Shown: positions 6,075 through 56,308 of the stretch, in pieces | Layout of the letters: each line of letters begins with the position of its first letter | Position numbering within the stretch: position 1 is the stretch's first letter | Assembly (NCBI GenBank): GCA_951406725.2 | Contig: OX597818.1 | Span: forward strand, 98,518,001 to 98,582,000 | Direction of reading: 5' to 3' | DNA from: Octopus vulgaris | Lineage: Eukaryota | DNA length: 64,000 bases | Notes under the pieces: generated by a model | Told to the model about the DNA's origin: nothing | What the model saw: only the letters and a program-made list of their open reading frames with translations | Databases searched by the model: none | Made by a program: the position numbers and the translations under genes

Positions 6075-7129
6075 CGTGTATGTATGTATGTATGCACATA
6101 TGTGTACATATGTACATCGCGAAAAGTATGTATGTATGTATGTGCACACATGTATGTATAGGTTTCAGGTCCTTCGAGACTACTGAATGGAAGTGAAAAT
6201 ATAATCTTTATCAGAGATCTGGGCCCAAATATTTGCAACAGAAAGTAATACATTGTTAAAGCCAACCCAGGATCAGTTGGTGGTATGAAACTGGATGACA
6301 GATTTATTTTATCACCTAAGAACGGGAACGGTCGGTCTGGTTGGCTTCCGTACAGTTTCTGTCTACCAAATTTTACTCACAAAGATTTGGTTGCTTCTAG
6401 ACTATAACAGAAGATACAGAAGTGCCGCTCAGCGTGATTAAGCCTCGAAACAAAGCACTTGCGACAAAGTCTTCTAAACCACACACTTATGAATGTGCCC
6501 ATACTATATAGATGGCATATATATATGTATGAATGCATGTTTGTATGTGCATATATATATATATATATGAATTATTAAATAGTACAATACAGTAGTATTG
6601 CTTCCCAGTAAAACAAAGCACCAACAGGTTAAACTATAAATAAGATAGTAGTACCACTATCTTACATATATATATATATATATCCTTAAAGACTCGCTCG
6701 TGTCCGGGGACATCCTGAACTCTAGGAGGGAGATTTTCGAACCATGCCTGTATCGGAGAAAATACCTGCTGGCTTTTTAGAATCCGTATGACGGCACCAC
6801 AGCTGCAAACTAATAGCTAAGGCCGAAGGGAGACAATCCTTTACCTTCGTGGTGCATTGGCGACTGCAAGGTAGCAGTGCGGCCCAACGTGGATGGAAAA
6901 GGGCAAAGGGAAATAATTACCTATGGTTTAACCCTAAAAATGAGGCTTTTCCTCCCCTCCATCTTTTAAAGAGGTCCCGGGTCAGCAGCGTTTGGGATCT
7001 GAAGATAGGCCGTAAGGCTAAACCCCTCATGAGTGAGAAAAACAGGGTAACTCCATAAACCGGCCTATCCCAATATAATACACACACATATACATACATA
7101 TATACGTATACATACATATATTATATATA

Positions 7130-16786: not shown

Positions 16787-17481
16787 GCCGTCCATCCATA
16801 CATTCATTTATCTGAAGGAGCCTTGGATCTAGGTTAGAAACCGGCTCTTTCTGTATTGGCAAGAGCAATCTTGAAATAAAACTAAATAATGACATACATA
16901 CATACATACATACATACATACATACATACATACATACATACATACATACATACATACATACATGTTCGTGATATGAAATCACCGTAACTTTCCTCATATA
17001 AACATCATCTAGGCGAAACCTAAACATCTGACCACAGACTCTGTTAAGAGAGATCTTGAATCCATTGTCTGATGGAAGATACAAATACTGAATCTATTAA
17101 AAGCACGTTTCCAAAATCCCTACACACAGCCAAGAAATTATATTGCCTCAACTTCCGCACCGATTGTCATACTGAACGCACAATAAAGCTTCAAATTCGT
17201 TACAAATGCAACACCACAATCATTCATAAACCCTCCTCTAGTAATTTCATGTTCACAACATAGAGCTAGATATTTTATCTAGAAGACTAACCTTCTTCAT
17301 TACTTCAGTAATCAACAGTTGCTGACACATGTAAATCTCAAATAGAACGATCCATGAACATACTGGACCACATACAAAAAAAAATAGCCATCTGGTCTAT
17401 TGGGATTGAGTTACTCAGCAATGCTCATCAGATTCTAATCCACAAACACGCTGACTTATCAGTCACTCTGTCGCTCATACC

Positions 17482-18285
17482 TATTTCTTTACTACCCACA
17501 AGGGGTTACACACAGAGAGGACAAACAAGGACAGACAAACGGATTAAGTCGATTATATCGACCCCAGTGCGTAACTGGTATTTATTTAATCGACCCCGAA
17601 AGGATGAAAGGCCAAGTCGACCTCGGCGGAATTTGAACTCAGAACGTAGCGGCAGGCAAAATACCTATTTCTATTCCTTTACTACCCACAGGGGGCTACA
17701 CACAGAGAGGACAAACAAGGACAGACAAACGGATTAAGTCGATTATATCGACCCCAGTGCGTAACTGGTATTTATTTAATCGATCCCGAAAGGATGAAAG
17801 GCCAAGTCGACCTCGGCGGAATTTGAACTCAGAACGTAGCGGCAGGCAAAATACCTATTTCTATTTCTTTACTACCCACAAGGGGCTAAACACAGAGAGG
17901 ATAAACAAGGACAGACAAACGGATTAAGTCGATTATATCGACCCCAGTGCGTAACTGGTATTTATTTAATCGACCCCGAAAGGATGAAAGGCAAAGTCGA
18001 CCTCGGCGGAATTTGAACTCAGAACGTAGCGGCAGGCAAAATACCTATTTCTCTTTCTTTACTACCCACAAGGGGCTACACACAGAGAGGACAAACAAGG
18101 ACAGACAAACGGATTAAGTCGATTACATCGACCCCAGTGCGTAACTGGTATTTATTTAATCGATCCCGAAAGGATGAAAGGCAAAGTCGACCTCGGCGGA
18201 ATTTTGAACTCAGAACGTAGCGGCAGACGAAATACGGCTAAGCATTTCGCCCGGTGTGTTAAACGATTCTGCCAGCTCGCCGCCT
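17482..18285 (-). mobile_element. Tetrameric SINE family A (one head plus four 190-bp bodies) within one TSD
   Basis: ACTACCCACA at 17491, 17681, 17871, 18061; TSD TCTGTC(G/A)CTCATACC at 17467-17481 and 18287-18301. Confidence 0.88.
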
Positions 18286-39586: not shown

Positions 39587-40527
39587 AGGAATTCTCAACC
39601 GGGGTCCATATGGCCCCTGAGTGTCCATATAAGATTCTTGGGGATCCACGCAATTAAATAGCAAATTGGGGATCAACAATACTGTTTTAAAGGCCTCTGA
39701 AAGAATTTTGCTTTTGATGTAAGTATTGGTATGTATTGCAAGTAACAGCTAGGTTTCTTTCTCTAATATTTTACATAGTTCAACCTACAGTAAATGTCTG
39801 AATAAGAAACTAGGAATTTTCGAAGTTTCTTATTTCTTTATTTCCCACAAGAGGCTAAACATAGAGGAGACAAACAAGGACAGACAAAGCGATTAAGTCG
39901 ATTACATCTACCCCAGTGCGTAACTGGTACTTAATTTATTGACCCCGGAAGGATGAAAGGCAAAGTCGACCCCGCCGGAATTTGAACTCAGAACGTAAAG
40001 ACAGACGAAATATCTATTTCTTTACTACCCACAAGAAGCTAAACACAGAGTGGACAAACAAGGACACACAAACGGATTAAGTCGATTATATCGACCCCAG
40101 TGCGTAACTGGTATTTGTTTAATCGACCCCGAAATGATGAAAGGCAAAGTCGACCTCGCCGGAATTTGAACTCCGAATGTAGCGGCAGACGAAATACCTG
40201 TTTCTTTACTACCCACAAGGGGCTAAACACAGAGGGGACAAACAAGGACAGACAAACGGATTAAGTCGATTATATCGACCCCAGTGCGTAACTGGTACTT
40301 GTTTAATCGACCCCGAAAGGATGAAAGGCAAAGTCGACCTCGGCGGAATTTGAACTCAGAACGTAGCGGCAGCCGAAATACGGCTACGCATTTCGCCCGG
40401 CGTGCTAACGTTCCTGCCAGCTCGCCGCCGTGAATTTTCGAAGTTTGTATAAAACTAGTTTTTAAACTTCCAATGGCTATGGGGGTCCACCAGAATAAAA
40501 TAATAATCAAATGGCTGAGAACCACTG
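39587..40527. mobile_element. hAT-type MITE with nested SINE trimer
   Basis: CAGGAATTCTCAACC ... GGCTGAGAACCACTG termini with GGGGTCCA internal repeats. Confidence 0.55.
39829..40430 (-). mobile_element. Trimeric SINE family A
   Basis: Three bodies and one head; same junction as the 17482 array. Confidence 0.8.
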
Positions 40528-42099
40528 TCCTAGACCTTTATACCTTTATACTTCTCCATAATCCCAAATATTTCTATCATACTCGTAAACATACAAACTA
40601 GAACACGCCACTCTATAAGCACACTGATTTTAACAGGAAGCAGTTACCTACACTCTCACATTATTTAAAGTTATGCAACTGCGCATGAATAAATTATGCA
40701 AATTACAGCAGAAAAGAATAGCTCAACGTAACGCATTTATGTGAAAGAAACAACAAATTACAAACTGTTAAGTTTTCATGACCACTTACAAAAAAATACA
40801 CAACCGTTTTACTCTAAACATAACGCACACATATACACATATAAAAGCATTAATAACTACTTATCTTAAGCACACATATACACATATAAAAGCATCAATA
40901 ACTATTTATCTTAAGCGTATTCGTACGATAAATAGTCATTTATTTGACCTGTTGTTGGCATTAGTGGTGTAAGAAAAATAATATCCAAGACAAATAAGAT
41001 TTGTGAATAACAACCAGAATGCATTGCGTTCTGTTACTTAATAAGTGAAAAATTGTATAGTAAATGCACAAACGAAAAATAGATACTGAACAGCAATTAA
41101 AAATCATTTAGTAAATGCACAGACGAATGGGAAACAGACACAGAAGGTCTCTAATTCCTAATCAGTTATCGATCAGAGGGTATGACGCAATTTCGTGCCG
41201 TTAACGATAAGATTGGTTCCCAGCTGGAGGCATCTGCAAGAAAAACAACCACTACATGGATACAAAAGTGGACATACGAAAATTAATAAATGTAATTCAA
41301 GACGACGGACGAGGGACAAAGGTGAAATAAATAGAAAAACAAACAATATGCAGCCTTAAGGCCAGATGAAGACGGAGCATGGGTAACGCTTAGAGGGAAA
41401 TCCTAACGGATTGGAACCCGAAGGACAACAGTCAACAAAACAGGCTGAAGTGGAGACTAGAGAATTTGCGACCTCAATGACCGGTGTAAAAATGAGAGAA
41501 CGAAAAAAAGGCTGACCACGGGTCACGTGTCAGCTCAGCTGCAGTCAGAGGGAGACACAGAGGGTAAAGGAGAAAGAGAGCGAGAGAGAGAGAGAGAAGG
41601 GAGGGAGAGAGGAAAAACGGAGAGAGAGAGAAAGAGAGGGAGGAAAAAACGGAGCGCGAAAAAGAAGAAAGAAGAAAGGCAAGAAATAAAGGATTGCACG
41701 GATTTATAAATAACTTACTGTGAATTAAAGGAAAGGTGCGTTGCGTTCCGTTAATAAATAAGAAAATGTCTAGCAAATGTAGAAACGAAAAACTGACACA
41801 GAATGGCAAGTTACACACACACACGCACACACACATACACACATATACATACATATATATATATATATATATATGTGTGTGTATACACACGCAAACATAT
41901 ATACATACATATATATATATAAATATATATATAATAGTTATCGCCATACTAATATGGCATTCTTATAAAAATAAGAAAAAAGCTGTCCGCTTATTAGCTC
42001 CATGAGGCCATCGCCTTAAGTTAGCTATTTGATACACAAACTGTATCCATATAACCTTCGAACAAGGGAGGTCAGTCGCTCCACACTACTTGACCGGCA

Positions 42100-42141
42100 G
42101 CTACAGACGCGTTTCGGGGTATTGTCCCTTTTCAATGCAGC
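42100..42141 (-). ncRNA. Minimal type I hammerhead ribozyme, U3-A8 core variant (copy 1)
   Basis: Minus strand: GCUGCA UUGAAAA GGGACAAUACCCC GAAA CGCGUC^UGUAGC. Stem I GCUGCA/UGUAGC, palindromic stem III ACGCGU, GUC cleavage triplet. Confidence 0.75.
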
Positions 42142-42461
42142 GTAGCCAGCCAGTAGGTGTCGCTTCCGACAATCTCTGTTCGATGGTTTTATTTACCTAG
42201 TTTCGGTGGAATACATCCACTTGTTTTCAATAATAGAAATATTAAAATAACTAAGTCTCACTAAAAGAGAACAGCGGCAGCGTTCCCGGAAAATAATAGT
42301 TATCGCCATACTAATATGGCATTCTTATAAAAATAAGAAAAAAGCTGTCCGCTTATTAGCTCCATGAGGCCATCGCCTTAAGTTAGCTATTTGATACACA
42401 AACTGTATCCATATAACCTTCGAACAAGGGAGGTCAGTCGCTACACACTACTTGACCGGCA

Positions 42462-42503
42462 GCTACAGACGCGTTTCGGGGTATTGCCCCTTTTCAATGC
42501 AGC
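42462..42503 (-). ncRNA. Minimal type I hammerhead ribozyme, U3-A8 core variant (copy 2)
   Basis: Minus strand: GCUGCA UUGAAAA GGGG-CAAUA-CCCC GAAA CGCGUC^UGUAGC, with a perfect 4-bp stem II. Confidence 0.8.
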
Positions 42504-42764
42504 GTAGCCAGCCAGTAGGTGTCGCTTCCTAAATCTTTATTATGATTATAAAAATCTTACAGAGATAGTACATTACAATACAAAACATAATTACAAAAAG
42601 TTTACGTTGTTCGTTTGATATTTACATATGTTGATTATTGATTATGATACTAGACTTTACTTTTCTCCTTTTTTTTAAAATTAAAAATGATTTTGGCCAG
42701 CTAGATATATCACAGTCAGGATTCTTACCCGACAGCCTAAGAGCCCAGAGACTATTTTCTCCCT

Positions 42765-45700
42765 TCATGATGACCAAGCAGGGTTACTCACACCCACCTT
42801 TTTTATCACATCCTTCCATCGATTCACATACTTTTTCTGTGTCAGGTTCCTCTTCTCAAAATCCATCTTGCTCTTTAGATGGTATCTGAAGTATTTTAAC
42901 ATACCATATCCAGAGACAAAGGTTCCTGACACCAAACCTTCCAATCTAGTTCTCCACACACACTCTTTCAGTACTGCCACCGTACAGTGAAAACAAGCCT
43001 CACCTTCCTTTGAGAGTCCAGCTGGCGGTATCATCTTTATTATAGAACCAGCCGATAGCTGTACTCGTCCCAGATGCGACAACACGTGTTCTACGTAACT
43101 TATTAAGCCTGACAGCTCCTGACAATGTACAAAAGCGTGCTGGACGGTTTCATCGTCCAACCCACATCTTGGACATGTCGGTGGCACTGACATTCCATGC
43201 CTATATAACTTATCGCGAACAGGTAGAGCATTCCTATAGCACTGCCAAGTCAGGGATTTTTGGTAATTGTCCAAATACCCCGGCTTGAAAGTCTTCTTAA
43301 ACAGGTCGGATAGTTGATCCTCATCGAACCCCAGAGACCCTCTTAGGACGTCGTCATTTTTTGCCTCTACCATCCTTCTATAAAATGTCGAGGTGGTATT
43401 CCCGCAGCCGGCTTTGCCTATCTTGTGGATCAGCCAGAGTGCCTGTCGGCACTCTTTCTGCCATAAAGTCAGGTTCCGTCTTTTAATGAAACCGGGTTTA
43501 AATCTCTCCATAGAGTCCGGTTGCGGGAAGAAATTATCTGCCAGCGGACTCCACACCTTATCACCTTCCAGGTGAAACCAGAGATGTCTCAGTCTCAGCG
43601 CATGCCTGCGCATCATTAACCAAGGCATCCCCAGCCCACCCTTTAGTGGTTCCTGGCAACACACGGAGCGCCTTACAAGTGGCTTTCCTCCCTTCCACAA
43701 AAAGCGGAAAAGGAGTCGATCCAACTTGCTTAGCCACAAATCGGGGCAAGGCACGACAGTCAGGCGATAGGTGATTACAGATGCTATAAACACCTGTACC
43801 ACCTCCGCCCTCCCTTTCAAGGAAAGATGCCTTCCGGACCACTCCCGAACTATGGCTTCTACCTTGGTCACTACCTCGCTCCAATTTTTCTCCGTCTGGG
43901 AGTCTGAACCAAACCAAACTCCAAGCAATTTAACAGGACCATCTGTCCAGTGTCCAACAACACTGGACGATATCGGCTTGTTCCTCCAGGTGCCGAGGCG
44001 CAAACCAGTGGACTTGTCCTTGTTAACTTTTGCCCCAGCCACCGCTTCGTATCTTCGGAGAGCACCTTCTACACGAGTTAGTTGTGCTTCGTTGGACACG
44101 ATGAAGGTGACGTCATCCGCATACGCAGAAACAGACTTACCGCATCCGATTTCATTAGGATTGCATCTCACCGTCTCCAACTTCCGCAGCAATGGCTCAA
44201 GAGCCAAAACGTACAGGAGAGGGGACAAGGGACATCCTTGACGAACTGAACGCTTAATCGAAAACGGTTCCGTTAAGTAACCGTTTATCTGGACTGTGGA
44301 CTTGATACCGCTGTACATAGCTGATATCCACCCGCGAAAGTCAGGACCTAGCCCAGCCGCTTCGAGAACCGTCGCCAGGTACTGATGATCTACCCTATCA
44401 AATGCTTTACTTTGGTCTAAATGGACCAATGCCCCTCCTTTGCCGGCTAATTGCCCAACCCTGTCTATAGTGTAGCGTAGAAGGTGAAGATTATCTTCGA
44501 TCGACCTGCCTGGGATTGCACATGTCTGTGCCTTTCCGACAAGTTTTTCCATGACGACCTTCAACCTTTCTGCTAACACCTTGGCCAAAATCTTTAACTC
44601 TACATTAAGTAGAGTTATGGGCCTATAATTACTAATATTATCCCCCTTGCTCGGGTCTTTCTGGATCAGCGTCACAACTCCCCGGCTCACAGAACTGGGA
44701 ATCCTCCCATTCTGTTGCCAGTTTGCGTAGACGCTTGCCAGTATGTCCCCGAACAAGTCCGGCATACAACAATAAAACTCATAGGGCAGACCATCCAGTC
44801 CCGGCGACTTTTCCCGGGCGCATTCAGCCAAAACCCCTCTTACCTCCGCGGGAGTAATCGGTCCTTCACAGCGTTCCGCTCTGCTTGGCGAGAGCCGAGG
44901 CCCACCAGCTAGGAAGTTCTGTAAGTCCTCCCCTCGCTCGAGTGGATCGCCCTCCCCAAACAACCGAGCGAAATGCTGTTGAAAGACCTTCTGTATCTCC
45001 TCCTGTCCATAGATTTTGCGTCCCTGTTCGTCAGTTAAAGACTTAATAGAGGACTTTTTGCCCTTCTGACTCTCCACACGACGTGCCCATCCGGCAACAT
45101 TAATACCTTCTCGTTTCACTGCACGTAGCTTAGCTCTGACTCTACATCCTTCATGCTTGGCATTGAGGTGACGGTACAAGATCGTTCTCTCTGCTAACAC
45201 TCTAGATGCACAGCCAGATCCCATTGCCTCGTCTAAGTTCTTAACTAAATCGCCCTCTATTCTAGTCCTATCTAAACTTAGCTGGTTGCTAAATCTAATG
45301 GACTCCAAACGGATGGCTCTTTTGAGGGCGATCCACCATCTATTATTAATGATGGTTCCACATAATGCCCTCTGGACTAATTCCATAATCCGGTTACGGA
45401 AAGCTTCACAAGCCAAAATAGACTTGTTCATTTTCCAGTATCCGGGTCCCTGTCTATGGCATTTATCTACATGTACCTCACACGTCACTAATTTGTGATC
45501 CGTGTAAGGCACAATACAAAATTGTGGACAGCTAATGCTATTCCTATCTCGTTCTTTAACAAATACCCTATCTATATACGATCTGCGTGAGCCGTCATTG
45601 TTACTCCACGTCCACTGTGGAATGCTCGGCTCATCCATTCGAAACCGATCTACTAGATTAAAGCTCGTCAGTAGACCCTTAAGGCAAGGATTCCCCCTTC

Positions 45701-46163
45701 TATCAGACGAGCCCACACTATCTATCCGCGCATCGATGATAGTGTTGAAATCCCCTACCAATACTACCGTTTTAGACGTCACTAGAAAGTGCTCCAAGTT
45801 CCGATAAAAACCAGTCTGCCTACCCTCATTAGGAGCATAAACAGCTACCAACCTGAAGGACTGCTTACTTACGTGAGTTACATCGAGGACAACCAGCCTA
45901 CCTTCTGGGTCCATAAAGACAGTACTTACCTGTAAGTCCAAGTTCTTCCTGATAAGGACTGCCACGCCTGCACTTCCTCCTCGGCTAGGAGAAATAAATT
46001 TCTCGTAACCATTGAGAAGATGCGAGAACGCTTGGGTTCCTCTCATCTTGGACTCGGTGGCAATGGCTACATCTATTCTGTGTGTCCTGAGGTCGTCCAG
46101 CAAGCAAGCCTGTTTCCATTTCGACCCCATTCCACGCACATTTATACAGCCCAACTTAATCAT
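42765..46163 (-). CDS. ORF2: APE endonuclease + reverse transcriptase + C-terminal CCHC (Tx1-like), 1132 aa
   Basis: APE motifs INVRGM, VYAPN, GDFN, SYIDRVF, TDHK; GPGYWKMN; RT motifs KSPGLDG, NYRPITLLN, DQSKAFDRV, VRQGCPLSP, YADD; GGLGMP; CPRC...HAFVHC. Confidence 0.96.
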   Translation of the reverse strand: MIKLGCINVRGMGSKWKQACLLDDLRTHRIDVAIATESKMRGTQAFSHLLNGYEKFISPSRGGSAGVAVLIRKNLDLQVSTVFMDPEGRLVVLDVTHVSKQSFRLVAVYAPNEGRQTGFYRNLEHFLVTSKTVVLVGDFNTIIDARIDSVGSSDRRGNPCLKGLLTSFNLVDRFRMDEPSIPQWTWSNNDGSRRSYIDRVFVKERDRNSISCPQFCIVPYTDHKLVTCEVHVDKCHRQGPGYWKMNKSILACEAFRNRIMELVQRALCGTIINNRWWIALKRAIRLESIRFSNQLSLDRTRIEGDLVKNLDEAMGSGCASRVLAERTILYRHLNAKHEGCRVRAKLRAVKREGINVAGWARRVESQKGKKSSIKSLTDEQGRKIYGQEEIQKVFQQHFARLFGEGDPLERGEDLQNFLAGGPRLSPSRAERCEGPITPAEVRGVLAECAREKSPGLDGLPYEFYCCMPDLFGDILASVYANWQQNGRIPSSVSRGVVTLIQKDPSKGDNISNYRPITLLNVELKILAKVLAERLKVVMEKLVGKAQTCAIPGRSIEDNLHLLRYTIDRVGQLAGKGGALVHLDQSKAFDRVDHQYLATVLEAAGLGPDFRGWISAMYSGIKSTVQINGYLTEPFSIKRSVRQGCPLSPLLYVLALEPLLRKLETVRCNPNEIGCGKSVSAYADDVTFIVSNEAQLTRVEGALRRYEAVAGAKVNKDKSTGLRLGTWRNKPISSSVVGHWTDGPVKLLGVWFGSDSQTEKNWSEVVTKVEAIVREWSGRHLSLKGRAEVVQVFIASVITYRLTVVPCPDLWLSKLDRLLFRFLWKGGKPLVRRSVCCQEPLKGGLGMPWLMMRRHALRLRHLWFHLEGDKVWSPLADNFFPQPDSMERFKPGFIKRRNLTLWQKECRQALWLIHKIGKAGCGNTTSTFYRRMVEAKNDDVLRGSLGFDEDQLSDLFKKTFKPGYLDNYQKSLTWQCYRNALPVRDKLYRHGMSVPPTCPRCGLDDETVQHAFVHCQELSGLISYVEHVLSHLGRVQLSAGSIIKMIPPAGLSKEGEACFHCTVAVLKECVWRTRLEGLVSGTFVSGYGMLKYFRYHLKSKMDFEKRNLTQKKYVNRWKDVIKKVGVSNPAWSS

Positions 46164-46187
46164 CGATGAATGAAGAAAGTTTGTTAC

Positions 46188-47669
46188 TTACGGTTGTGAG
46201 AGGGAGCATGGCAGCTTTTGTCTGCCTGCCTCCCCCACACTCTCCGTTGTTGCTGGGCATTTAACCGGCGTTGCCACCGGGCTCTGGGATGGAGTGGCTG
46301 CCGGGCTAATATTCAATTTTCCAGCTATCACCTCTTGTGTGACATCTTTAATCAGGTTGTCCCTCACGTGTAGTTGGAAGAGTCTCTCCTTCCATTCCTC
46401 CTCTCCAACCTTCGCATACCTCCAATCCGGGTTTTTTTCCGATGATTTGAAACATTTTATGTTTGGTTTCGCCTTTATGTACCAAACTACTCTCTCGTTT
46501 TTTGTGTTATAAGCAATGCACCTATCGGTTTTTTTGAATCCTTTTAAAGTTGGGGGCTGGGGTTTAATGAAATGCTGGCCTACAAAAGTAGTGCCAGCGG
46601 GGTGGGATTGGATAATTTTTTTGTGTTGTTCTTCTGCGTTTGTTTTTCTTTTTGTTTGGGGTGGGGAGTCCGGGGTATTGGATTTCTTCCTTTTGTTGGT
46701 TACAGTCGTATATTCCATTACTTCCAGTTCTTTTCCATTTGATAAAATATTTTCCACCTCGTTTTCGTTTTCGCTTTGTTTTCCATTCATTTTCTTTTCC
46801 TCCTTTTGACTTTCATTTTGCTTTTTCCGGGTATTCTCTTTAGTTGTTGCTGTGATGTCTGCTTTGTTCTCCACAGCGGTTTGAATGGGGGCATTAACGG
46901 GTTTTTTCTTTTTGCACTCTGAGCGGACGTGACCCTTCTGCCCACATTTGAAACATCTAGGCCTACGTCCCTCAACCGATACCCGCGCAGTGTGTCCATC
47001 CCCCACGAAGACCCTGTCTGGCAAACTCTCCAGCGTTGCATTGTCAGCTTGAACGATCATTTCAAGCTGCTGACCTTTCCAAAATTTTGCCTCTTTCATC
47101 CTCATGTTTAAAATGTTTAATTTCTCTTCTACGTCGAATACGACCGTTGTTGCTGCCCACATTACATCGTAACCTGTTGGTATATCCTCTATTGTTATCT
47201 TAGCTGTTCTGCGCCCTAAGTACGTGGGCAGCAACAGGATGTCTGCACTCTTCAACGTTTGAGTTGAAATTTCCTTCGCTATGCTAGCCGACTCGAAATG
47301 CGCTTCAATAGTAGCGCTTCTCACTCCTCGGCCAACATAGCGAACCTTGTTCCAAATTGGTGCCATGCACCGTTCTACCAATTCATTTCTTACATCTGCA
47401 ATCTTTTTTTCCTTAATATTATATACCTTATAAATTACCGTCTTCTCACGGATTGCTTGTAAGGTGTCAGGGGGCGGTATTATTCTCGTTTCTTCTCCAT
47501 TCCTTTGTATGAACTTTCTGAACTTGAAGAGATCCTCCATTGTTACTTCCAGTTCTATAACATTGCCTCCAACGGCTTCCGAAAAACTTTGTTTCTCCTT
47601 TGTATCCTTTTGCTTTATAACTTCTCCCATCTCGGGAAAATCAGAATTTGACGTTAAGTCAAGATCCAT
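46188..47669 (-). CDS. ORF1: gag-like nucleic-acid-binding protein with CCHC zinc knuckle
   Basis: CFKCGQKGHVRSEC knuckle followed by a K/E-rich region. Lies upstream of ORF2. First ATG at 47669; the track start at 47720 is a non-ATG codon. Confidence 0.88.
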   Translation of the reverse strand: MDLDLTSNSDFPEMGEVIKQKDTKEKQSFSEAVGGNVIELEVTMEDLFKFRKFIQRNGEETRIIPPPDTLQAIREKTVIYKVYNIKEKKIADVRNELVERCMAPIWNKVRYVGRGVRSATIEAHFESASIAKEISTQTLKSADILLLPTYLGRRTAKITIEDIPTGYDVMWAATTVVFDVEEKLNILNMRMKEAKFWKGQQLEMIVQADNATLESLPDRVFVGDGHTARVSVEGRRPRCFKCGQKGHVRSECKKKKPVNAPIQTAVENKADITATTKENTRKKQNESQKEEKKMNGKQSENENEVENILSNGKELEVMEYTTVTNKRKKSNTPDSPPQTKRKTNAEEQHKKIIQSHPAGTTFVGQHFIKPQPPTLKGFKKTDRCIAYNTKNERVVWYIKAKPNIKCFKSSEKNPDWRYAKVGEEEWKERLFQLHVRDNLIKDVTQEVIAGKLNISPAATPSQSPVATPVKCPATTESVGEAGRQKLPCSLSQP

Positions 47670-48229
47670 AATAAAATGCAAGTGACTTGTCACAAGAGAC
47701 AAGATAAAAATTAAATCCACACTGAATTAAAGTTCATATATAAAAAGAAATTTTCTACCCCGAAGGGCGAAAATTACTTTGTTTCACAAGTTAATACTCC
47801 AAAAATTGTACGTGTAAATCCAGAACAGAACGAACTAACATAACAGCTTACAGCGTAAAATAATCCGACGTAATCCAAGGAAAAATCAGTAGGTGTCGCT
47901 TCCGACAATCTCTGTTCGATGGTTTTATTTACCTAGGTTCGGTGGAATACATCCACTTGTTTTCAATAATAGAAATATTAAAATAACTAAGTCTCACTAA
48001 AAGAGAACAGCGGCAGCGTTCCCGGAAAATAATAGTTATCGCCATACTAATATGGCATTCTTATAAAAATAATAAAAAAGCTGTCCGCTTATTAGCTCCA
48101 TGAGGCCATCGCCTTAAGTTAGCTATTTTTTATTATTTTTATAAGAATGCCATATTAGTATGGCGATAACTATTATTTTCCGGGAACGCTGCCGCTGTTC
48201 TCTTTTAGTGAGACTTAGTTATTTTAATA

Positions 48230-48734
<505 letters not shown>

Positions 48735-55451: not shown

Positions 55452-55862
55452 GGCGGCGAGCTGGCAGAAACGCTAGCACGCCGGGCGAAATGCTTACCGG
55501 TATTTCGTCTGCCGCTACGTTCTGAGTTCAAATTCCGCCGAGGTCGACTTTGTCTTTCATCCTTTCCGGGTCGATTAAATAAGTACCAGTTACGCACTGG
55601 GGTCGATATAATCGACTTAATCCGTTTGTCTTCCCTTGTTCGTTCCCTCTGTGTTTAGCCCCTTGTGGGTAGTAAAGAAATAGGTATTTTGTCTGCCGCT
55701 ACGTTCTGAGTTCAAATTCCGCCGAGGTCGACTTTGTCTTTCATCCTTTCGGGTTCGATAAATTAAGTACCAATTATGCACTGGGGTCGATGTAATCGAC
55801 TTAATCCGTTTGTCTGTCCTTGTTTGTCCCCTCTATGTTTAGCCCCTTGTGGGCAATAAAAA
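55452..55862 (+). mobile_element. Dimeric SINE family A
   Basis: Head plus two bodies, A-rich tail. Confidence 0.8.
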
Positions 55863-56308
55863 AAAAGGAAATACAGTGACTGGCGTTCAATATATTTGAA
55901 CTGGTAATAACATTGCAGTCATACATGTCACTGCTTAACGTTCCTACTTCGTAATCTATGTTCTGAGTTCAAATTCCGCCGGGGCCGACTTTGCCTTTTA
56001 TCCTTTCGGAATCGATAAAATAAGTACCAGTCAAGCACTGGGATCAATGTAACCGACTTACCCACTCCTTGAACGTGCTGGTCTTGGGCTGGAATTTGAA
56101 ACCAATGTAGAATAACAAAAGAACTTTGCCCTTCAGCGCATTGAATACTTATTTGCTGTCACCTTAACTCTCTGACTCAGGATACTTGTACCTCTACACT
56201 CTCTATCTTTCTCTCTCGCTCGTTGTCTATCTGTTCTCTGTCAGTTAGTCTGTTTGTCTGTCTGCCTGCCTGCCTGCCTCTCTGTCTGTCTGGCTGTCTG
56301 CCTGCCTC

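Follow-up and report, generated by a model that had tools for sequence, protein, structure and literature searches.

Several LINEs of the Tx1 clade are target-specific, and PMC4494074 gives Tx1L in Tx1D, Keno in U2 and Tx1-Mar in Mariner-N4 as examples. For R2 and R1, the accessible portions of three studies propose co-transcription with the target, annealing of a target-derived leader or short trailer, and uniform junctions (PMC6530143, PMC3774820, PMC7265360); a 4-nt 28S trailer raises the efficiency of R2Ol, which works best with little extra sequence past that trailer (PMC6530143), and 28S leaders yield uniform R2 5′ junctions (PMC3774820). Metazoan retrozymes and Penelope hammerheads are characterized, in the accessible parts of the papers concerned, as tandem units of 150-450 bp with a type I hammerhead, a short palindromic helix III and a U3-A8 core (PMC7229834, PMC4209133, bioRxiv 10.64898/2026.07.22.740005); those parts describe the kind of repeat that serves as a target here, not a LINE that parasitizes it, and the accessible text of bioRxiv 10.64898/2026.07.22.740005 makes no mention of "Tx1". 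The LINE analyzed here resembles Tx1L, Keno and Tx1-Mar in its two ORFs, its APE endonuclease and its fixed site in a multicopy repeat, with a mobile element or snRNA gene as target, but differs from them in that its target is a hammerhead retrozyme-like unit, its site is the predicted +1 of that unit, and few changes in the endonuclease accompany the switches that its close subfamilies make among such units, U1 and U2. The model considered below likens it to R2 and R1; R2, however, according to the same portions of the literature, encodes its own HDV-like 5′ ribozyme, whereas the ribozyme at this locus belongs to the target, lies 3′ of the element and appears to be dispensable.

Within the 64,000-nucleotide stretch of Octopus vulgaris DNA that was analyzed (the window, G000:C5:98518001-98582000), the minus strand carries a full-length L1/Tx1-type non-LTR retrotransposon of 5,357 bp (42530..47886), which lacks poly(A), is flanked on both sides by an exact 17-bp target-site duplication (TSD) and is 98-99.9% identical to copies elsewhere in the genome. 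Its ORF1 (46188..47669, minus strand, ATG at 47669) encodes a CCHC zinc knuckle (PF00098), and Pfam domains identify an APE endonuclease, a reverse transcriptase (RT) and a zf-RVT motif in ORF2 (42765..46163, minus strand, ATG at 46163). The predicted N-terminal APE, RT, C-terminal zinc motif and separate ORF1 are those of L1 group non-LTR retrotransposons, and human L1 ORF2p is the solved structure closest to ORF2 (E = 5e-66, with R2 at 4e-23). No named Tx1 element is among the 120 homologues listed, and the best named homologue among the matches listed is from Argonauta; the Tx1 label originally came from the preliminary description, and the CCHC ORF1 presumably fits the Tx1 clade. Target-specific insertion with a TSD, a trait of that clade, is found here at one base in 21/21 copies, with a 17-bp TSD in 16/16 full-length ones. 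ORF2 lies in the frame of ORF1, 24 nt from the ORF1 stop, and since only one TAA and these 24 nt (window 46190-46163) separate the two same-frame ORFs, reinitiation or read-through is possible.

The 3′ UTR contains a U-rich stretch with five TGTA motifs (42542..42600, minus strand), possibly upstream cleavage/polyadenylation elements, followed by an AATAAA (42536..42541, minus strand) 6 nt short of the element end and by the last bases of the element, GATTTA (42535-42530, minus-strand reading), with no tail after them. The 3′ TSD copy (42513..42529, minus strand) corresponds to +1..+17 of the hammerhead unit, and its exact match, the 5′ copy (47887..47903, minus strand, read 47903-47887), is predicted from transduced leaders in sister copies to form a 17-nt leader of the LINE transcript.

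It had been proposed in the preliminary description that this tail-less end runs into a co-oriented hammerhead with a cleavage site about 60 nt beyond the element, and that insertion duplicated part of the distal helix I extension without damage to the ribozyme. All of this is borne out by the arrangement of the minus strand, in which AATAAA-GATTTA is followed by the 17-bp TSD, a 9-nt spacer (42504..42512) made up of a bulge and a portion of the 5′ side of the extended helix I, and an intact type I hammerhead core of the U3-A8 variant with a palindromic helix III (42462..42503), recognized by motif and fold. Helix I pairs 42503-42498 with 42467-42462 (minus strand), the core UUGAAAA occupies 42497-42491 (minus strand), helix II has 4 bp, and helix III is a C-G pair with a 2-nt closing loop. 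The cut is predicted between 42468, the C of GUC, and 42467, which is 62 nt beyond the LINE end, and the TSD takes in the 5′ side of the distal extension of helix I, leaving the downstream ribozyme whole. The 91-nt fold has z = -3.9, and none of 200 shuffles was equally good. Because Rfam at its gathering score returned no hammerhead match in the window or in 18 related loci, the hammerhead call rests on motif, fold and helix I pairing across sequence-divergent units; the core, GAAA, NUH and three helices are nonetheless those of a type I hammerhead, and self-cleavage is predicted. The U3-A8 core variant of type I hammerheads is described in the accessible part of PMC4209133, where a short palindromic helix III is said to impede cleavage of the monomer and to necessitate a dimer.

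This ribozyme is part of a first, 362-bp retrozyme-like repeat unit (42168..42529, minus strand), which is followed by a second, partial unit (positions 1-237; 41931..42167, minus strand) that contains a second hammerhead (C17 at 42106) and ends at a (TA)n tract. On the other side of the LINE lie a partial unit without a hammerhead (138-362; 47904..48128, minus strand) and an inverted partial unit (187-300; 48126..48239, plus strand), which adjoins (TA)n and which we take to be a Penelope-type 5′ inversion; the target locus thus comprises partial, whole and inverted pieces of the unit between (TA)n tracts. The unit has at least 171 matches in the genome (40 of 1,020 candidates scored), and the hammerhead core is intact in 60/62 sampled copies. 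As a non-coding, tandem and dispersed 362-bp sequence with a type I hammerhead, the unit has the properties of a non-LTR retrozyme and probably is one. A stretch past the terminal hairpin of the unit (window 42420-42390) is common to the unit families, loosely resembles the U1 3′ flank and is possibly a 3′ box. In another target family, unit B, all four hammerheads examined (3′ flanks of L160, L163, L169 and L176) have CCGA(U/C)GA (U4C), and their helix II is mismatched (U-U) at its base. A repeat search of the window was dominated by microsatellites; tandem repeats of 184-190 bp, in both orientations (17481-18235, 39831-40381 and 55499-55868), presumably represent a common SINE-like element.

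The 2.8-Gb genome was searched with the 3′ end of the element, 40 of 80 candidates being scored, and with an exact pattern that matched 28 times; these searches gave 21 copies of the subfamily in 16 loci, numbers that are lower bounds. Poly(A) tails or random orientation in other copies, named in the preliminary description as evidence against it, were not encountered: 21/21 copies are tail-less and inserted at the identical base in the same orientation, and this fixed site, orientation and end are not due to chance. No bases are added at any of the 21 3′ junctions, and the last base of the element (A in 12, T in 9) tracks the age of the LINE rather than the target. Sixteen copies are full-length, each with a 17-bp TSD, and 5/21 are 5′-truncated with junctions of their own (a TSD of 10 or 17 bp, or a target deletion). 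An intact co-oriented hammerhead lies 3′ of the LINE in 18/21 copies, the remaining three ending in the TSD and then the next LINE. Every one of the 18 hammerhead flanks extends to unit position 230 or further, which is 168 nt or more beyond the GUC, and no copy among them stops at the GUC. A second cis hammerhead is present in only 4 of these 18, and an upstream hammerhead in only 8/16 full-length copies, the window locus being without one.

The alleles of the TSD agree on both sides of the subfamily copies, and since one young copy (L066) lies inside an older target allele with matching TSDs, the +1 there must be target-derived. Each of the two target alleles is found next to both young and old LINE ends. 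The units that flank the LINE have alleles specific to their locus on either side of it. Trailer alleles derived from a donor (+18..+62) were found only in L068, local alleles being present in L065, L066, L073, L075, L077 and the C2 array. Behind the LINE in L068 (6444-6680), a donor-type unit 1-236 is missing two alleles that the remaining units there have in common, and at +36 it passes into a local unit; this sequence possibly reflects 3′ transduction through an uncut hammerhead, with a composite RNA being copied, although a two-step history also fits, and L067 can be read in the same two ways. The C2 array (G000:C2:73044000-73069000; L061-L063, L097) holds five LINE copies head to tail, with only the 17-bp TSD at three LINE-LINE junctions, and its near-identical copies may be duplications.

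The missing tail extends well beyond the subfamily. An A-run longer than four within 30 nt of the end was seen in 0/52 lineage 3′ ends (55 rows minus L087, a chance motif, L188, a U2 promoter without a LINE, and L193, another element; the 3′ end of L165 was not located in this survey). These ends include copies at the +1 of U1 (L085, an Rfam-confirmed U1, and L090, which is degenerate), five at the +1 of U2, and others at three further hammerhead families, at unrelated sites and at LINE-TSD-LINE junctions; a loose 3′-end pattern gave fewer matches than its control and was left out. In a 770-nt ORF2 tree, for which midpoint rooting was used and bootstrap support is not fully settled, the copies of the subfamily form a clade of their own (99/96) that is nested within a set of U1-type and off-target copies, with the other hammerhead-targeting families outside; in a separate tree, the mis-cut row L073_2 (a 69-bp copy) was ignored. 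U1-type copies are 1-3% from the subfamily in ORF2. Because relatives at U1 and off-target sites are also tail-less, and given the nesting in the tree, the tail-less end predates the association of the subfamily with this ribozyme; because close relatives end alike before U1 and U2 genes that have no ribozyme, the hammerhead is likely to be a bystander. The missing tail can be explained without the hammerhead. The LINE does not belong with R2-like, ribozyme-processed retrotransposons, which encode a ribozyme that sets an RNA end: here the hammerhead is found in the target unit, beyond the TSD, and the junctions at U1, at U2 and in tandem arrays have none. A U1 cluster (G000:C18:48996000-49063000; L085, L090, L158, L170) contains nested LINE copies of 64-94% identity, and their several ages suggest long-term targeting of U1.

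The insertion base has the position expected of a transcription start. A PSE-like motif (47948..47957, minus strand), part of a putative promoter, lies 54 nt upstream of the TSD start, an offset that matches the one before U2 and U1. AGTG(G/A) occurs at -54/-55 in U2, in two of the three U1 flanks shown and in the window unit (chance expectation 0.8% per site), as well as at -54 to -57 in 5/6 flanks of units B and C, the sixth having a variant; the motif is absent from one U1 flank type (L137). The 10-mer of the window unit is identical in some U2 genes, and U6 flanks share no motif at -54, most U6 matches looking like pseudogenes. With a PSE at a fixed distance from +1, the target unit appears to have an snRNA-type promoter, as judged by motif match. 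Pol III would be unable to read through the five T's that follow the leader, and whether snRNA promoters yield polyadenylated mRNA is disputed. Ty3 and Dictyostelium TRE5-A insert at or near Pol III starts, where tethering is established; the window LINE is like them in its positioning at a small-RNA promoter, but the element classes and the polymerase differ. Newt satellite 2 has been reported to have an snRNA promoter (cited in the accessible part of PMC2220036).

Leaders carried by displaced copies bear on the 5′ end of the LINE RNA. At 4/4 junctions of full-length copies inserted in U2 (L196:1066-1100, L197:1160-1195 and 6685-6720, L198:1091-1125), where the TSD is 14 bp, U2 +1..+14 is followed by a 17-nt hammerhead-unit leader that begins at +1 and then by the LINE. 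This leader matches +1..+17 of a unit like that of L174, and U2 and this donor unit have their first 6 bases in common. The leader appears to be a fixed fossil of a former hammerhead-unit target that records the direction of the switch. Similarly, L081 carries U1 +1..+17 at a non-U1 site. These 17-nt leaders show that the RNA of the ancestor of the U2 copies began within about 2 nt of the unit +1; cleavage at an upstream GUC would instead leave about 300 nt. The leaders favor a 5′ end set by the promoter over one set by an upstream ribozyme. The suggestion of the preliminary description that an upstream hammerhead defines the 5′ end is accordingly disfavored, such a hammerhead being absent here and found in only half of the full-length copies; a pattern joining the LINE start directly to the GUC had 0 matches, which is a weak test.

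Several observations bear on the 3′ end of the RNA. An AATAAA about 6 nt from the end is found in 10/12 ends shown across subfamilies, with 1-5 TGTA motifs upstream of it in each 3′ UTR shown, while the 3′ UTRs are only about 60-65% alike. Cleavage usually occurs 10-30 nt after AATAAA, a distance that lands within the TSD and would therefore give a short free trailer with a tail that is never copied. An RNA end 10-25 nt after the element's own AATAAA, inside target sequence, is a serious possibility to which we give just under even weight; an end at the target's own 3′ end, or no defined end, is a plausible but less probable outcome, and an end at the GUC is unlikely. The AATAAA may instead be a recognition signal for RT. 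Assembled contigs from 7 of 21 listed sequencing runs, guessed to be RNA, do not discriminate among these ends. One such contig (42427-43155) spans the GUC from the LINE, and among the contig ends listed none with poly(A) lies near 42500-42530, which does not count as evidence. The offset of the cut from +1 is about 56-67 nt in each of four hammerhead target families, whose helix I pairing is kept although their sequences differ. A predicted post-cleavage duplex of -35.7 kcal/mol would pair trailer +8..+33 and leave about 7 loosely paired bases.

Evidence on site choice comes from copies that have missed their target and from the endonuclease itself. ATAC, the first four bases of U1, follows 7/9 off-target U1-lineage copies (background 0.66%), in two of which (L078 and L081) it is also present in the 5′ TSD copy; this bias could reflect endonuclease preference, and L086 may mark another small-RNA target. 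None of these nine copies lies in a hammerhead unit. Of about 150 endonuclease residues that can be compared, 3 (ORF2 positions 23, 26 and 84) distinguish the subfamily from both U1-type copies, a comparison that draws on only two decayed U1-type copies, one of them partial. Families B and C and the U2 copies have most diagnostic endonuclease residues in common, and the predicted hairpin loop, aligned by eye to that of L1, is unchanged across subfamilies with unrelated targets. Since U1 and the hammerhead-unit targets have at most their first base in common, and the three endonuclease changes coincide with the switch from U1 to the unit, protein read-out may explain that switch. The same hairpin loop is reported, in the accessible part of PMC1950540, to matter for the specificity of L1 and Tx1L. 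On these sequences, RNA from the target likely pairs at priming. The off-target U1-type copy in L081 lies inside a pair of inverted U2 genes (L081:201-394 and 6785-6978), which hints that snRNA clusters may attract such copies. A different coding-looking element (L193, minus strand, about 1050-1520; L161:350-780), unmatched by ORF2 tblastn, ends in similar AATAAAGA and lies at the +1 both of U2 and of unit B; the presence of this second, unaligned element at these sites hints at targeting at the protein level.

We favor, on balance, a reading in which the LINE sits at the likely start of an snRNA-type promoter and target bases are likely present at both ends of its RNA, where those at the 3′ end likely base-pair to the nicked DNA. 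Pol II would start at +1, and the resulting 17-nt leader would anneal at the 5′ junction; transcription would run on into the target copy, and the RNA would be ended inside target sequence; ORF2p would then nick at -1/+1 and start copying at the last base of the element, so that sequence beyond it, tail included, would not be copied. Read-through and pairing were part of the 3′-end model in the preliminary description, and this part is supported indirectly by the 21 exact junctions, the ATAC bias, a switch between targets with the same first 6 bases and the precedent of R2Ol and R1Bm. The other part, in which the target's hammerhead trims the read-through RNA at +62 and the defined tail-less end serves as working template, has not fared well, and we consider it improbable. 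It would account for the intact co-oriented ribozyme directly after 18/21 ends, its constant orientation, the 60/62 intact cores and the conserved cut offset and helix I pairing in four families; R2Ol likewise prefers little sequence past its target trailer (PMC6530143, accessible part), and abundant retrozyme RNA could provide a dimer partner in trans. The identical end nevertheless occurs where no hammerhead is present, namely at U1, at U2, at off-target sites and at three LINE-TSD-LINE junctions, and 18/18 flanks run on past the GUC. In addition, the form of helix III is one reported to hinder monomer cleavage (PMC4209133, accessible part), with a cis partner in only 4/18 copies; the predicted duplex would hold +8..+33 paired after the cut; L068 resembles a copied uncut composite, two-step history aside; and the one contig, if RNA, crosses the GUC from the LINE. 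The hammerhead is therefore likely to be incidental to the copying of the LINE.

Two further explanations concern the fixed site. If protein alone were responsible, the endonuclease, possibly tethered to an snRNA promoter complex, would fix the site, RT would start at a 3′ UTR signal and flanking RNA would be idle. Such a mechanism agrees with the precise +1 nick of L066, a young copy within an older target allele, with a TSD of 17 bp in most families whatever the sequence, with the landing of L081 between two U2 genes, with the second element type at the same +1 sites and with the sequence specificity of the Tx1L endonuclease on its own (PMC1950540, accessible part). We nevertheless regard it as unlikely, for near-identical endonucleases serve unrelated targets, each subfamily keeps its own target, with 0/9 off-target U1-lineage copies in hammerhead units, and the transduced leaders place target sequence in the RNA, at least at its 5′ end. 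Common descent could also produce a fixed site and end, had a single insertion been spread inside the retrozyme by Penelope-like machinery; L067 and L068 do resemble composite copies with retrozyme-type ends, and the C2 array copies may be duplications. The individual junctions of the five truncated copies, the occurrence of young and old LINE ends in both target alleles and the locus-specific alleles on both sides of the flanking units nonetheless leave this very improbable, and L066 and L073 largely refute it.

Going beyond the favored reading, the LINE might be retargeted by its flanking RNA, a small-RNA gene at the landing site supplying promoter, 5′ leader and 3′ guide; we offer this tentatively, and the additional idea that within hammerhead units the host ribozyme also trims the guide is more doubtful still. 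If retargeting is true, one lucky insertion would move a lineage to a new target almost without protein change, as from a hammerhead unit to U2 or from U1 to a hammerhead unit. In the openly accessible main texts searched, we found no paper on a Tx1 element that targets hammerhead repeats or U1/U2 starts, and the accessible part of the Octopus vulgaris repeat paper mentions no hammerhead, ribozyme or target; a family of this kind may already appear in Repbase or in the target tables that supplement PMC4494074. A host ribozyme that supplies the 3′ end of a LINE would be new, but that is the less likely reading. A change of target by a site-specific LINE is usually put down to evolution of the endonuclease. 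Here, a young and intact family and sisters only a few percent apart occupy unrelated targets whose one common feature is the position of a promoter, and a fossil leader remains from one of the switches. How much the endonuclease, tethering and RNA pairing each contribute thereby becomes directly testable, which would matter for programmable insertion tools.
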